Source: Nitrospiraceae bacterium (GTDB taxonomy: Bacteria; Nitrospirota; Nitrospiria; Nitrospirales; Nitrospiraceae). From it: a stretch of 64,000 bases of DNA. A program made the translations under genes and the position numbers. The stretch lies in contig JBFWWG010000017.1 of assembly GCA_050246315.1 (NCBI GenBank), positions 1 to 64,000 on the forward strand, given 5' to 3'. Of the stretch, positions 14,259 through 61,264 are shown in pieces. A model generated the notes under the pieces. That model worked only from the letters and a program-made list of their open reading frames with translations. It searched no databases and was not told where the DNA came from. Each line of letters opens with the position of its first letter. Position 1 is the first letter of the stretch.

Positions 14259-14336
14259 GGTCCCATCGTCTAGCCTGGCCTAGGACGGAGCCCTCTCAAG
14301 GCTCAGACACGGGTTCGAATCCCGTTGGGACCACCA
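14259..14336 (+). tRNA. tRNA-Glu (anticodon CTC)
   Basis: GGTCCCA acceptor stem, anticodon arm GAGCC-CT CTC AA-GGCTC, GGTTCGAATCC T-arm, encoded CCA. Confidence 0.96.
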
Positions 14337-58493: not shown

Positions 58494-58651
58494 AGCCCAT
58501 TTCAGCGAGACAAGGCGAATAGGCTACTGAAACGATTTCCCGGACTTCCGCCGGATATCGTCCGGGCAACGCTCCGTTCTTTGGCATTAATATCGCTGAC
58601 TCAGTAGACCAAAAGGCGTGATTCAATCGAGGAGATGAACCGGGGAACTAC

Positions 58652-58768
58652 TTAGCGGAGCTTGCGGGCTCTCTTCTGCTTCTTGGGCGCTTCCTTCTTG
58701 CCCACCTTTGGCGCGCTCAGAACCACCTTCAAAGCTTCTTTGAATTTTGTGAATGGCGATGGGTCCAT
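58652..58768 (-). CDS. IS passenger: 38-aa basic peptide (absent from the ORF track)
   Basis: MDPSPFTKFKEALKVVLSAPKVGKKEAPKKQKRARKLR; SD ggagg; upstream TTGACA-N18-TAAAAT. Confidence 0.65.
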   Translation of the reverse strand: MDPSPFTKFKEALKVVLSAPKVGKKEAPKKQKRARKLR

Positions 58769-58828
58769 TGCGTCCTCCGTCGAGGGCACCCTACCACAAA
58801 GCCATCTGGACCTCAAAAAAAGCGCGCC

Positions 58829-58858
58829 ATTTTAGCCCTCATCCTTGACGCATGTCAA
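58829..58858 (-). promoter_or_regulatory. Leftward sigma70 promoter inside the IS
   Basis: TTGACA-N18-TAAAAT; the -35 lies in the near-palindrome TTGACGCATGTCAA. Confidence 0.6.
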
Positions 58859-58902
58859 TTAAGTGGCATATGCGGCATGATGCATGGCTGCCATTTTGCT
58901 CT

Positions 58903-58931
58903 TTGACTTCGTGCCGCGATTTTAGTAACAT
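58903..58931 (+). promoter_or_regulatory. Rightward sigma70 promoter inside the IS
   Basis: TTGACT-N17-TAACAT. Confidence 0.55.
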
Positions 58932-58982
58932 CGCATATGTTGTTGCTGCCGGCCATCCGCATTCGATATGGAGGGTATCCAT

Positions 58983-59366
58983 ATGGGAACCGCGATTGAT
59001 GAGATTAGAAAGCAGATCAGTACAAAGGAAGTGGAACTCGCTCGCGTGCAGCAGGAACTGGACGTATTGCGCCGCGCACTAACCATTATGAGCGGACGGC
59101 GCATGGATGTAGCAGAAGGTGGGCCGAAAATTCCAGACCTGCTCCGTGAGGTTATGGCCGAATCCAACGGTCAAATTAGCGCCGATGAAATCGTTCTGAG
59201 GGTTAAGGCCAAAGGCAGTCAGGCAACGCGACAAACCATCCTTGGCGCAGCTTATAGATGTGCGAAAGAAGGACGTTGGATCAAGATCGTCTCAAAGGGT
59301 GTTTTCGGCACAATTGAGGAGGAGGAAGACCATCTTGTGAAGCTAAGAGCACTCTGTAGCTCATGA
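58983..59366 (+). CDS. IS passenger: coiled-coil plus winged-HTH-like protein
   Basis: SD ggagg; N-terminal heptads; ISADEIVLRV...TRQTILGAAYR...KIVSKGVF. Confidence 0.7.
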   Translation: MGTAIDEIRKQISTKEVELARVQQELDVLRRALTIMSGRRMDVAEGGPKIPDLLREVMAESNGQISADEIVLRVKAKGSQATRQTILGAAYRCAKEGRWIKIVSKGVFGTIEEEEDHLVKLRALCSS

Positions 59367-59424
59367 TGCACGAACGCCCTACCACCCACGCAAGAGGAAG
59401 TAGGGCGCTCGCTTCACCCAGTAT

Positions 59425-59521
59425 GGCCAGGCAACCCTAGCGGCAACTAGGGCGGCGGAATCGCAAACCGTTGAGCCATGTTAGCGCATGGCTTGGGGCT
59501 CAACCCCCCGCCTGGCCTCCA
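59425..59521 (+). ncRNA. Allo-tRNA-like RNA (8-bp acceptor/4-bp T-stem, long variable arm, anticodon CGC, U73, CCA)
   Basis: GGCCAGGC/GCCTGGCC-T-CCA; D stem CCCTAG/CTAGGG; anticodon arm GGCGG-AATCGCAAA-CCGTT; variable arm GAGCCATG/CATGGCTT; T arm GGGG-CTCAACC-CCCC. Confidence 0.8.
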
Positions 59522-59567
59522 TCACTACCGTAGGAGGGTAGTAATGGTGTCTCTAAAATGCATTCAC

Positions 59568-59596
59568 ACTCTACCTAGACCCCCACCAGTTGTCAA
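59568..59596 (-). promoter_or_regulatory. Antisense sigma70 promoter pointing into the tRNA-like gene
   Basis: TTGACA-N17-TAGAGT on the minus strand. Confidence 0.6.
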
Positions 59597-59725
59597 GCGA
59601 GCGAGCCCTAAGCAGAGGCGATAACTGTCTCCTGGCCGGAGAGGTGCCCCCTGCTTAGCCCTCGCTCGATCAGAGTCTACCAGAGGCAAAACTAAAATAA
59701 CTACATGCATTCGAAGGAGTTAAAC

Positions 59726-59866
59726 ATGGCAAGGAAGGATCAGACCAGTACGCTGAAGGGTCGAGATGCCCGAAGCGGTCAGTTTATCCCGGTCGAGGAA
59801 GCCAGGAAGCGGCCTAGCACGACTGTTGTTGAGCGTGTCCCGCTTCCTGGGAAGGGAGGTAAATAA
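59726..59866 (+). CDS. IS passenger: 46-aa basic protein (absent from the ORF track)
   Basis: MARKDQTSTLKGRDARSGQFIPVEEARKRPSTTVVERVPLPGKGGK; SD aaggag. Confidence 0.75.
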   Translation: MARKDQTSTLKGRDARSGQFIPVEEARKRPSTTVVERVPLPGKGGK

Positions 59867-60118
59867 TCACCGCCTTAGCACGGTGATTTTCTCAATACTG
59901 GCTGTGGGGATCGTGAGGTCCCCACAGCCTTGCAGCATGATTTCACCATTCTTCTCACCCGCCATGTGAGGCACCAAGACCTTACAGTCTTTACGATCCG
60001 CCACAAGCCAACCGACCGAACGACAATAAAGCGGTTCGGCCGCTCGCTCTATTTGCTCAGTTGTTTGCCAACCGCGCCCAGCATGGGAATCGAGCCATTC
60101 TATAAGCACCAGCTTCAT
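59867..60118 (-). CDS. IS passenger: 83-aa beta-rich hypothetical protein
   Basis: SD ggagg; LVLIEWLDS...CRSVGWLV...IPTASIEKI; directly downstream of the transposase. Confidence 0.75.
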   Translation of the reverse strand: MKLVLIEWLDSHAGRGWQTTEQIERAAEPLYCRSVGWLVADRKDCKVLVPHMAGEKNGEIMLQGCGDLTIPTASIEKITVLRR

Positions 60119-60169
60119 AGATCCTCCTATCCTCGCTTCCCTCGTTTTTGTCGCCTTCCAAAGGCCTGT

Positions 60170-61108
60170 TTATGATGGAAGGCTCGTAAGGTGCTGATAG
60201 GTGAGCCGACGCCCATGAATGGTTGAAAGGGCCTGGATAAATCGGTCTTGGTCCGTCTGCTTGCGAGCATTGAAACGGTAGGTTTGCTCATCGAGATACC
60301 GGAACAAGTGGAACGGCTCAACGCTCACATAGGTTCCCTTGATCCCGCGCTTCAGAAGGCTCCAAAAGTTCTCGATAGTGTTGGTATGCACATTCCCTTT
60401 CACGTAGGTTTCAGCATGATTAATGACGCGATGGGCATAATCCAGCCCAACCTGTTTATAGCCTGCCCACTGGTCAGTGTAGACCGTTGACCCAGATTCG
60501 ACATGGTCTCGAATGGTGCTGTTGAGCAATCGCGCGGAGGCAGTGTTTAGAACTGTTGCGCGAACCTCTCCCTTTCGCTCGATCATGCCCATCACAACGG
60601 CCTTTCGGAAGCTCCCTTCCGCCTTCACGATCTTCTTTTGTTTGTCATAGTGCATATTGCGGGCTTTCCCGCCGATATAGGTTTCATCGGCTTCCACTTC
60701 GCCAGATAGCTTGGTCTCGAAAGACTTGTTATGGAGAGCCAAGCGAAGCCGATGCAGCATGAACCAGGCAGTTTTCTGAGTCACGCCAAGGGATCGTCCC
60801 ACTTCATACGAGCTAATCCCATTCTTGCAGTTCACCAGCATCCAAAGCGCACAGAGCCACTTATCGAGCTTGATCGGACTATCCTCAAAGATAGTGCCGA
60901 CCTTCACACTGTACTGCTTCTTGCAGCCTTTGCATTCCCACAGTGAGCGAGTCTTGATGAAACGATATTCTTTTGAAGCGCAGCGCGGGCACACTGGACC
61001 GTCAGGCCAACGGAGTTGCACAACCAGATCAAGGCAGGTTTGTTGATCCGAGAAGTATTGGATGGCTTCTTGAAGAGTGTGGGGCAGTTTGTGTGAGTCC
61101 TTCATCAT
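60170..61108 (-). CDS. IS1595-family DDE transposase
   Basis: Zn ribbon CPRC...CKGC, SVKVGTIFEDS, VEADETYIGG, YTDQW, HTNTIENFWS, GRRLTY. Confidence 0.95.
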   Translation of the reverse strand: MMKDSHKLPHTLQEAIQYFSDQQTCLDLVVQLRWPDGPVCPRCASKEYRFIKTRSLWECKGCKKQYSVKVGTIFEDSPIKLDKWLCALWMLVNCKNGISSYEVGRSLGVTQKTAWFMLHRLRLALHNKSFETKLSGEVEADETYIGGKARNMHYDKQKKIVKAEGSFRKAVVMGMIERKGEVRATVLNTASARLLNSTIRDHVESGSTVYTDQWAGYKQVGLDYAHRVINHAETYVKGNVHTNTIENFWSLLKRGIKGTYVSVEPFHLFRYLDEQTYRFNARKQTDQDRFIQALSTIHGRRLTYQHLTSLPS

Positions 61109-61134
61109 CGTTCCTCCGTGGCTTGATAATGAGG

Positions 61135-61163
61135 ATTCTACACGGTTCAGCCTACTGAGTCAA
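61135..61163 (-). promoter_or_regulatory. Transposase promoter overlapping the terminal inverted repeat
   Basis: TTGACT-N17-TAGAAT; the -35 lies inside the TIR. Confidence 0.7.
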
Positions 61164-61264
61164 GTATATTAATGCCCGTTCTTTCAGGCGAGAGTTCCGT
61201 TGAAAGCTGCTATAATCCGCAGAGTCTTCCCTCGTCTCATCCGATCATCCCAAGAGTCAACTCC

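Follow-up and report, generated by a model that had tools for sequence, protein, structure and literature searches.

Why an insertion sequence should carry a gene resembling that of a transfer RNA, and what such an RNA could do for its carrier or its host, is the question raised by a 97-nucleotide (nt) segment in a 64,000-nt stretch of DNA from a Nitrospiraceae bacterium (assembly GCA_050246315.1, contig JBFWWG010000017.1, positions 1–64,000; referred to as the window). The segment, at 59425–59521 of the plus strand, lies inside an element of the IS1595 family. It is a genuine RNA gene selected for the cloverleaf of an (8/4) allo-tRNA, a class described by Mukai et al. (Nucleic Acids Res 2017, PMC5389517; reviewed in PMC7609411). 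The gene belongs to a cassette whose other parts are a coiled-coil/winged-helix protein, a hairpin and a convergent antisense promoter.

59425–59521, plus strand: 8/4 allo-tRNA-like gene, 97 nt (fold, covariance-model homologues, pair counts, RNA contigs)

Direct reading of the letters yields an acceptor stem of eight Watson-Crick pairs (GGCCAGGC / GCCUGGCC), whose 5′ half is followed by the linker AA and by a 6-bp D stem (CCCUAG / CUAGGG) with the 6-nt loop CGGCAA. The anticodon stem (CGGCGG / CCGUUG) also comprises 6 bp including two G·U pairs, and its next layer is an A·A opposition enclosing AUCGCAA, which places a CGC anticodon at 59462–59464 and the triplet GCA one base further. The variable arm (AGCCAUGU / GCAUGGCU) is built of 8 bp, seven Watson-Crick and one U·G, around the loop UAGC, and is connected by a single U to a 4-bp T stem (GGGG / CCCC) with the loop CUCAACC, behind which U73 (59518) and an encoded CCA are found. 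This cloverleaf corresponds to the minimum-free-energy structure calculated with RNAfold (−51.2 kcal/mol, z −3.69, 0 of 200 shuffled sequences being equally stable), the sole deviation being a T stem slid by two Cs. Reading and calculation thus both reproduce the division proposed in the initial annotation, with its 8/4 branch, 6-bp D stem, 8-bp variable arm, U73 and CCA. G3·U70 is the identity pair of AlaRS (PMC5389517); since pair 3-70 is C3-G70 in the present gene, tRNA-Ala identity is excluded. The alanine anticodon CGC is therefore at odds with the lack of G3·U70, the long variable arm and U73, as the initial annotation had claimed.

Standard tRNA finders pass over the gene, again as anticipated. 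ARAGORN called a single tRNA in the whole window, a tRNA-Glu at 14259, and Rfam at its gathering cut-offs likewise reported only this tRNA-Glu. When 59300–59650 was searched with Rfam at E ≤ 10, four weak matches were obtained, none of them to tRNA or tRNA-Sec; a SymR match on the minus strand was rejected as chance (22.1 bits against a gathering score of 61, E 0.051). From bacterial tRNA-Sec (RF01852) the gene is separated by its 8/4 instead of 8/5 branch, by CGC instead of UCA and by the lack of an Rfam match at E ≤ 10, and judged by RF00005 and ARAGORN it is also not a canonical 7/5 tRNA. It is single-copy in its own genome (G000), where no second copy was found.

Relatives of the RNA are rare and divergent. 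When the 97 nt were compared by BLAST with 401 genomes of the phylum, only partial matches of 25–39 nt were obtained, and plasmids and phages yielded no match. A covariance model built from the single sequence was used first, then pattern scans, then a four-sequence model; metagenome contigs were covered by the pattern scans only. The single-sequence model detected a weak relative (49 bits) in G104, a genome of the same family (locus L012). The scan pattern was built from two loops common to the window gene and L012, and one of its 16 matches in genome contigs is real, L029 from a metagenome-assembled genome (MAG) titled Nitrospira sp. (80 bits), as is one of its 23 matches in metagenome contigs, L045 (105.8 bits); the remaining 15 and 22 loci, respectively, are chance matches according to the covariance model. 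The scan of viral contigs gave one locus, situated on the same contig as L046, which was discarded as the covariance model does not match it. With the four-sequence model, L058 was found in G535, which belongs to another family of the same order (90.6 bits), together with the 7/5 relatives L068 and L059, and L096 and L107 were added from loci collected via a linked IS1-like transposase. The 8/4-specific model R3 recognized only the window and G104 among 151 genomes of the phylum. The tally of model R2, 111 of the 151 genomes, was rejected as a family count, ordinary tRNA-Ser scoring 36–48 bits.

Nine members were thus assembled: four 8/4 copies (window, L045, L029 and L058), four 7/5 copies and one irregular RNA (L107). 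ARAGORN calls none of the four 8/4 copies, and labels the 7/5 copies of 95–97 nt as tRNA-Ala cgc (L012), cgc (L068), tgc (L059) and tRNA-Thr ggt (L096). U73 is present in all nine members and the UCCA end in eight; the anticodon is CGC in six members and UGC in one, which places seven of the nine in the alanine box. The two remaining members are L096 (L096:1258-1352), a class-II-like RNA of 95 nt with the anticodon GGU (Thr), and L107 (L107:1282-1358), which has 77 nt, a 6-nt anticodon loop and the ARAGORN label 'tRNA-???'. Separately, a 93-nt 7/5 tRNA with a long variable arm, A73 and the anticodon UAU was noticed in a genome of the window's family (L013:1501-1593, minus strand, equivalent to G417:C271:2055-2147); ARAGORN calls it tRNA-Ile tat, so that a class-II body is combined with an isoleucine anticodon, and BLASTP comparison showed no IS1-like transposase ORF (open reading frame) within the 3-kb locus.

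The four 8/4 copies allowed the pairing to be examined in a structure-blind MAFFT alignment. Standard pairs occupy 98.4% of the pair cells, compared with 34–52% in a control in which the partner was slid by 1–3 columns. Double-sided changes affect six pairs, of which the acceptor stem, the D stem and the variable arm contribute two apiece, a number equalled in 2 of 500 column shuffles; when L012 is included, in an alignment fitted to the model, there are 15 double-sided changes, equalled in 0 of 500 shuffles. Two compensatory pairs of the variable arm appear in the comparison with L045 and two of the D stem in that with L029. The RNA is 89% identical to that of L045 over 100 nt, and the flanking DNA has no detectable similarity. 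Covarying homologues, whose absence the initial annotation had named among the findings that would refute its proposal, are accordingly present, with pairing kept through compensatory changes. They also bear on the class assignment. Position 8 pairs with the G following the T stem in all four copies (C-G three times, U·G once), whereas the alternative fifth T pair of a 7/5 reading would be U·G in three copies and A·G in one; the 8/4 build put forward at the outset is therefore preferred to 7/5. The D loop consists of 6 nt in all four copies and differs among all of them, and the anticodon-loop sequence UCGCAAA is invariant. The 7-nt loop UUCGCAA of L012 and L058 is the loop of the tRNA-Ala(CGC) encoded in the window's own genome.

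The other parts of the cassette in the window are as follows.

58903–58931, plus strand: promoter-like site TTGACT-17-TAACAT before ORF A (consensus scan, 9/12)
58983–59366, plus strand: ORF A, 127 aa, the conserved partner of the tRNA-like gene (structure model, L045 link, profile search)
59371–59411, no strand assigned: GC-rich hairpin, bidirectional terminator-like, between ORF A and the tRNA-like gene (inverted-repeat pair)
59568–59596, minus strand: antisense promoter-like site TTGACA-17-TAGAGT (consensus scan, 10/12)

The AlphaFold2 model of ORF A (mean pLDDT 78.3) consists of a long helix (residues 2–36) and a winged-helix unit (50–110), for which Foldseek returned weak, generic winged-helix matches (Fur/Zur/CRP, best E 4.9e-3). 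BLASTP between ORF A and the ORF preceding the L045 copy gave 28% identity (E 3.6e-10), the comparison with the corresponding L012 ORF was not significant, and the family profile of ORF A collects 186 clusters at E ≤ 1e-3 and 22 at E ≤ 1e-10. We assign it to the coiled-coil family of the cassette because of the L045 link, the shared architecture and the profile search.

A further feature shared by the loci is a near-consensus sigma-70 promoter-like site on the opposite strand, which points into the tRNA-like gene from 15–50 nt past its 3′ end. It occurs in nine of nine loci with 10–11 of 12 consensus matches, six of the nine reading TTGACA-16-TGnTATAGT, at a shuffle background of the promoter scans of 0.2–0.8 sites per scanned region. 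The sense RNA is likely derived from the promoter-like site before ORF A, which would direct transcription through the tRNA-like gene. The GC-rich hairpin is located 13–25 nt upstream of the tRNA 5′ end and is kept in L029, to which blastn similarity extends from 59369, with two compensatory pairs read by eye; the equivalent hairpins of L058 and L107 score as minus-strand intrinsic terminators. Minimum free energies of the sense and antisense RNAs did not tell the strands apart. Since the features conserved across divergent members are tRNA signatures of the sense strand, we conclude from the sequence comparison that the sense RNA is presumably the structured product and the antisense RNA its putative regulator.

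Sequencing libraries provide an independent view. DNA of the window was encountered in 14 runs, which belong to 6 studies labelled as wastewater, bioreactor or landfill metagenome and are possible sources of this DNA, and contigs of four RNA runs could be placed on the element; such contigs carry no information on strand, ends or level. RNA libraries can hold DNA, and element parts devoid of RNA contigs are no evidence of silence. The cover is uneven, which speaks in favour of RNA. The whole tRNA-like gene is covered in three of the four RNA runs, from three studies, by contigs spanning 59406–59727, 59407–59536 and 59404–59622. The region, for which the initial annotation had proposed to look for a mature ~97-nt CCA RNA, is thus represented in RNA libraries by contigs. 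The contig 59407–59536 of run X17 has a depth of 129.8, about 25 times that of neighbouring contigs (4.4–5.7), and adapter letters abut its position 59407. The transposase gene is covered by none of the four RNA runs. Further RNA contigs lie in the ORF A region (58968–59123 and 59025–59321) and in a gene named ORF C below (59760–60117). Another contig, of run X16, spans 59597–59731 with adapters on both sides, a contig of run X18 begins at the same position 59597, and contigs of three runs end at 59727–59734, adjoining the ATG (59726) of a further gene, ORF B.

The carrier of the cassette in the window is a 2594-bp IS1595-family element inserted between rlmN and a TPR/SLT gene. Its ends, transposase and further passengers are listed here.

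58575–58582, no strand: target-site duplication, left copy, 8 bp (CGTTCTTT), repeated at 61177–61184
58583–58607, no strand: left terminal inverted repeat, 25 nt, 88% complementary to 61152–61176
58652–58768, minus strand: small basic ORF, 38 aa (no Pfam, NCBIfam or PADLOC match)
59597–59731, plus strand (strand inferred): structured stretch with a 21-bp hairpin at 59598–59668 (repeat pair, RNA contigs)
59726–59866, plus strand: ORF B, 46 aa (AGGAG before the ATG; no family match)
59867–60118, minus strand: ORF C, 83 aa (conserved hypothetical-protein family)
60170–61108, minus strand: IS1595-family transposase, 312 aa (PF12762 1.1e-40, PF12760 2.7e-16, NF033547 5e-56)
61152–61176, no strand: right terminal inverted repeat, partner of 58583–58607
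61177–61184, no strand: target-site duplication, right copy (direct reading)

The transposase possesses the N-terminal zinc ribbon and the DDE_Tnp_IS1595 domain and scores 190 bits with NF033547 (cut-off 75). A contig from an RNA library joins 58573 to 61176 and omits 2602 nt; the element is therefore present in some cells and absent in others, as this contig displays the uninterrupted target site. Inverted ends, the 8-bp duplication, the transposase families and the empty-site contig together substantiate the assumption that the tRNA-like gene is cargo of an IS1595 element. The element is single-copy in the genome and has a G+C content of 52.3%, compared with 59.8% for the window. A promoter-like site with 11 of 12 consensus matches (58858–58829, minus strand) belongs to the 38-aa ORF. 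The structured stretch 59597–59731 is probably a structured leader of ORF B or a separate small RNA. The ORF C family comprises 196 proteins at E ≤ 1e-3, all names given being 'hypothetical', and among the 120 matches listed, the window's own protein excepted, relatives are 66–84% identical; ORF C may regularly accompany this IS1595 subgroup as an accessory gene. Many of its relatives reside on short contigs and one is named Nitrospira sp. RlmN is 80% identical within the genus, 62% within the family, 54–59% within the order and 57% to the MAG titled Nitrospira, and amoA occurs in two members of the family; these observations do no more than suggest a Nitrospira-like lineage. For the four passenger ORFs of the window and two cassette ORFs of L012, Pfam and NCBIfam gave nothing above cut-off and PADLOC no match at E ≤ 0.1.

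Outside the window, all-against-all BLASTP uncovered a recurring gene order that starts with a ~90-aa basic protein and a 110–160-aa protein whose N-terminal part is a coiled coil, and continues with the tRNA-like gene and a ~280-aa IS1-like transposase (PF03400 8.5e-08; NF033558 68 bits, under the cut-off of 100). The basic proteins L012:667-939, L068:2417-2704 (minus strand), L058:464-712, L059:597-887 and L096:347-637 share a C-terminal motif of the type ...AAVALGxxGGxxRAxKLSxxxRxxIAxKAAxxRW, and the only one scanned, L012:667-939, belongs to no Pfam or NCBIfam family. IS1-like transposons carry the cassette more often than IS1595-family elements do. The IS1-like transposase is present in 80 of 401 genomes of the order; the window's own genome contains copies broken at contig ends (G000:C11:2-748, minus strand, and G000:C21:1-207). 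The notion that the tRNA-like gene is a constant component of IS1-like elements was rejected, the gene being found at only five of the 30 best IS1-like loci and DNA similarity among copies beginning only 35–50 nt before the ATG. In G104 the four-gene unit is bounded by inverted ends (637–669 and 2573–2605) and an 8-bp duplication (CGTGAATC), from which it follows that the cassette is transposon passenger DNA there as well. Two alternative left ends exist in this element, one at its outer border (637) and one given by an end-like repeat further inside, near 1697, and they show how the cassette became passenger DNA; as an aside, it (L012:637-2605) is inserted between ATP-synthase gamma-like and alpha-like genes. 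In L029 the RNA follows a tyrosine-recombinase gene, ORF A is absent, and the hairpin, the tRNA-like gene and the promoter are retained. The RNA hence travels with at least three kinds of mobile elements, namely IS1595-family, IS1-like and integrase-adjacent ones. Regarding the initial annotation as a whole, its interpretation is supported in part: the architecture, the cargo status, the identity mismatch and the failure of the finders all held up, all three refuting conditions open to examination came out in its favour, and the cassette and the antisense promoter had not been foreseen. The conserved antisense promoter lends indirect support to its suggestion of an RNA toxin or antitoxin moved by the IS.

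Which function might such an RNA fulfil? The host encodes 46 tRNAs recognized by ARAGORN, among them a tRNA-Ala(CGC) with the loop UUCGCAA, a tRNA-Cys and four tRNA-Ser with G73; the tRNA-like gene is consequently not needed for decoding. The tRNA-Ala genes of the host start with GGGG, and its tRNA-Cys ends with UCCA and has the loop CUGCAAA. A long variable arm and G73 or U73 are marks of a serine acceptor, SerRS tolerating U73, and 8/4 allo-tRNAs decode in Escherichia coli, where they insert serine by identity and not by anticodon (PMC5389517). Induced allo-tRNA expression arrests growth of E. coli (PMC5389517). GCG accounts for 92 of 222 alanine codons (~41%) in four neighbouring host genes and for 10 of 42 in the IS genes. 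A serine-charged tRNA with the anticodon CGC would thus mainly hit the host, the share of GCG being higher in host genes. That the tRNA matches a fixed rare codon of the linked transposase was also considered and found unsupported, GCG being common in the host; the codon alignment of 582 columns, in which some ORFs were poorly chosen, contains one column with GCG in at least three of the four CGC-linked IS1-like transposases, and tRNA-less homologues also have alanine at this place.

On this basis we tentatively favour a scenario in which the cassette provides a missense tRNA that is potentially toxic, is kept in check by convergent antisense transcription and by a winged-helix regulator, and serves the persistence of its carrier. 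The sense RNA would be made by read-through from the ORF A promoter and be processed like a tRNA. It would be charged independently of its anticodon and most likely with serine, given that SerRS reads the long variable arm and tolerates U73. The charged tRNA would then read GCG and, if abundant, cause proteome-wide alanine-to-serine errors; its amount would be limited by the strong antisense promoter together with the winged-helix protein, and the cassette might act as a toxin-like or addiction-like module. Read-through sense transcription, processing, serylation, GCG decoding, toxicity and restraint are the inferred steps of this scenario, which we put forward as a working model. Its stricter version, a type-I-like toxin-antitoxin module with a missense tRNA as toxin causing proteome-wide mistranslation and with antisense RNA and winged-helix protein as restraint, appears rather unlikely to us in this full form. 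The toxin would in that case be a class-II-shaped RNA that combines an alanine anticodon with another identity, in an 8/4 or a 7/5 build. The same caution is appropriate for another part of this reading, that a ~0.7-kb RNA-toxin module hops among at least three carriers, an IS1595-family element, an IS1-like element and an integrase island.

Several observations speak against the proposed missense tRNA. The consensus scan found no promoter-like site on the sense strand within ~150 nt upstream at any of the nine loci. The abundant RNA contig extends from 59407 to 59536 rather than over 59425–59521, and the read-1 adapter side at 59407 would indicate minus-strand RNA if the library was of the dUTP type. 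The anticodon loop contains 9 nt, or 7 nt closed by A·A or C·A, and thereby exceeds that of published allo-tRNAs by one layer. T-loop position 1 is C instead of U in three of the four 8/4 copies and the D loop lacks GG in two of the four, so that the tRNA elbow may be weak. In L045 the end reads CCU instead of CCA. PADLOC, Pfam and NCBIfam assign no toxin-antitoxin or defence family to the passenger ORFs, and six allo-tRNA(UAU) species were inactive in E. coli (PMC5389517).

Some of these irregularities also fit a tRNA mimic without a role in decoding. Such an RNA would be recognised by a protein or another RNA through its tRNA shape, its anticodon loop like that of tRNA-Ala(CGC) and its UCCA end, and would serve the mobile element as a decoy, sensor or regulator. 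Candidate recognisers are a synthetase, an enzyme that modifies or cleaves tRNAs, RNase P/Z, for which the RNA would be a processing signal, and the winged-helix protein of the cassette. The irregular elbow, the 9-nt anticodon loop and the lack of a match to the Rfam tRNA models even at E ≤ 10 are in line with this possibility, which we consider a serious one although somewhat unlikely. The inactivity of both allo-tRNA(UAU) and G-1 tRNA1 species in translation and the proposal of non-translational roles tied to transposons or toxin-antitoxin loci (both PMC5389517) point in the same direction. However, the 7/5 relatives in this cassette are sufficiently regular to be called by ARAGORN, their T loops being canonical and their D loops containing GG. 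Alanine-box anticodons in seven of nine members are equally compatible with codon reading and with mimicry. Another view takes the minus-strand RNA as the functional one: the promoter would drive a transcript of ~150–200 nt, complementary to the cloverleaf and ending at the terminator, and the tRNA-like strand would be its target or a leftover. The near-consensus promoter on that strand at every locus and the lack of a nearby sense promoter at any, the clear intrinsic terminators just past the tRNA 5′ end in L058 and L107, the reduction of L029 to hairpin, tRNA-like gene and promoter, and the adapter orientation of the X17 contig, if from a dUTP library, are all compatible with it. A gene that is antisense only would, however, not preserve the unpaired signatures of a sense-strand tRNA which are conserved here, i.e. 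UCCA, T loops of the UUCGA type, U33, A37 and the D-loop GG of the 7/5 copies. Moreover, the stems contain 11 G·U cells against one C·A cell, the long arm of the complement lies on the wrong side for a tRNA, and nothing else in the window's own genome could serve as a target of such an RNA. Altogether, we rate a functional minus-strand RNA as improbable.

Two further explanations concern the anticodon and the origin of the gene. U73 and the GCA at loop positions 35–37 might recruit CysRS for cysteine charging, or the 9-nt loop might read a four-base codon and thereby shift the frame. U73 and GCA are the main identity elements of CysRS, and an out-of-register triplet was suggested to be recognized by HisRS in irregular tRNAs (PMC5389517); in addition, NGCAA is kept in the CGC and UGC members, and the host tRNA-Cys displays a similar end and loop. 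On the other side, the CGC register is the one that suits U33 and A37, GCA is absent from L096, whose anticodon is GGU, the loop is of the ordinary 7-nt size in three 7/5 members, and neither a frameshift site nor a fixed cognate codon was found in the linked transposases; we regard both variants as very unlikely. An inert relic of a captured tRNA gene, finally, would be compatible with the single copy in the genome and with a host set of 46 tRNAs that is complete without it. This explanation, already disfavoured, is contradicted by stems that have stayed intact, with compensatory changes, in copies whose flanking DNA is no longer recognizably similar, by a promoter and hairpin architecture conserved in nine of nine loci and by the presence and local enrichment of the region in RNA libraries; we regard it as the most remote of those considered. 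The restrained missense tRNA remains our preferred, if tentative, interpretation.

How does the RNA compare with known systems? It shares with (8/4) allo-tRNAs the 12-bp branch split 8/4, the 6-bp D and anticodon stems, the long variable arm, an anticodon unrelated to the likely identity, the escape from standard finders and U73, one of the two discriminators named (G73 and U73; PMC5389517). An association of allo-tRNAs with transposable elements and toxin-antitoxin loci has already been noted there (PMC5389517). Differences exist in the D loop, which has 6 nt here and is a tetraloop in the published species, in the anticodon loop (9 versus 7 nt) and in the T loop, which starts with C here; in a comparison by eye with supplementary rows, no sequence likeness to the 'major' allo-tRNA type was apparent beyond the architecture. 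The loop motif TCGCAAAC is absent throughout the supplement of PMC5389517. Among 38 of the 142 places with 'CGC' in this supplement, which include the last rows of the codon-sorted sheet 1, CGC does not occur as the anticodon of an 8/4 or 9/3 species, and the only three entries in the anticodon column belong to short 'tRNA0' species of the 7/5 build. For allo-tRNAs, the published account names Clostridia, Proteobacteria and Acidobacteria (PMC5389517), whereas one copy here, L029, stems from a MAG titled Nitrospira. Neither an antisense promoter nor a winged-helix partner is described for allo-tRNAs in the parts of PMC5389517 considered here.

The tRNA0 (7/5, U73, CGC) and tRNA1 (GGU/GCU) species on sheet 2 of the same supplement resemble the present family in their irregular builds and their soil and mobile contexts, and the 7/5 relatives L012, L068 and L096 share U73-CCA and the CGC/GGU anticodons with them. 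In contrast, the tRNA0 rows available have ~70 nt and no long variable arm, while the members described here are class-II-like RNAs of 95–97 nt. The selC* tRNA-Cys (PMC5389517) likewise combines an 8/4-type branch, a long variable arm and U73, but its GCA/UCA anticodon is absent here in the canonical register, as is its A51a bulge. A literature search on tRNA-like genes, insertion sequences and transposase passengers revealed no title on an IS-borne tRNA among the matches listed. Control of toxic or of transposition genes by cis-antisense RNA on mobile DNA is known from the hok/sok type I toxin-antitoxin system and from IS10 RNA-OUT, where a strong promoter on the opposite strand produces a fully complementary RNA. 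The cassette resembles these systems in its mobile location and its opposite-strand promoter, from which an antisense RNA is predicted, but the controlled RNA is tRNA-like here and not an mRNA. In view of these comparisons, the RNA is a new lineage of an allo-tRNA class known since 2017 and not a new kind of system. Foremost among what is new are the conserved cassette, the occurrence of both 7/5 and 8/4 sisters in it and the universal antisense promoter.

Efficient decoding by allo-tRNAs and their toxicity in E. coli were demonstrated in 2017, and the locus offers a well-delimited case in which to address their natural role, with an intact 8/4 gene, an anticodon new to the class and a carrier whose ends are exact and whose empty site is known. 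As 7/5 sisters occur in the same cassette, the change from 7/5 to 8/4 can be studied within one lineage. It is also apparent that expressed tRNA-like genes in well-studied environmental bacteria escape both tRNA finders and Rfam, which bears on how codon usage and mistranslation are read. The antisense promoter turns the vague association of allo-tRNAs with transposons and toxin-antitoxin loci into a testable model, in which a tRNA toxin is restrained by an antisense RNA and a repressor. If true, this model would provide a natural function for allo-tRNAs in the form of a mobile module that uses a tRNA as toxin.

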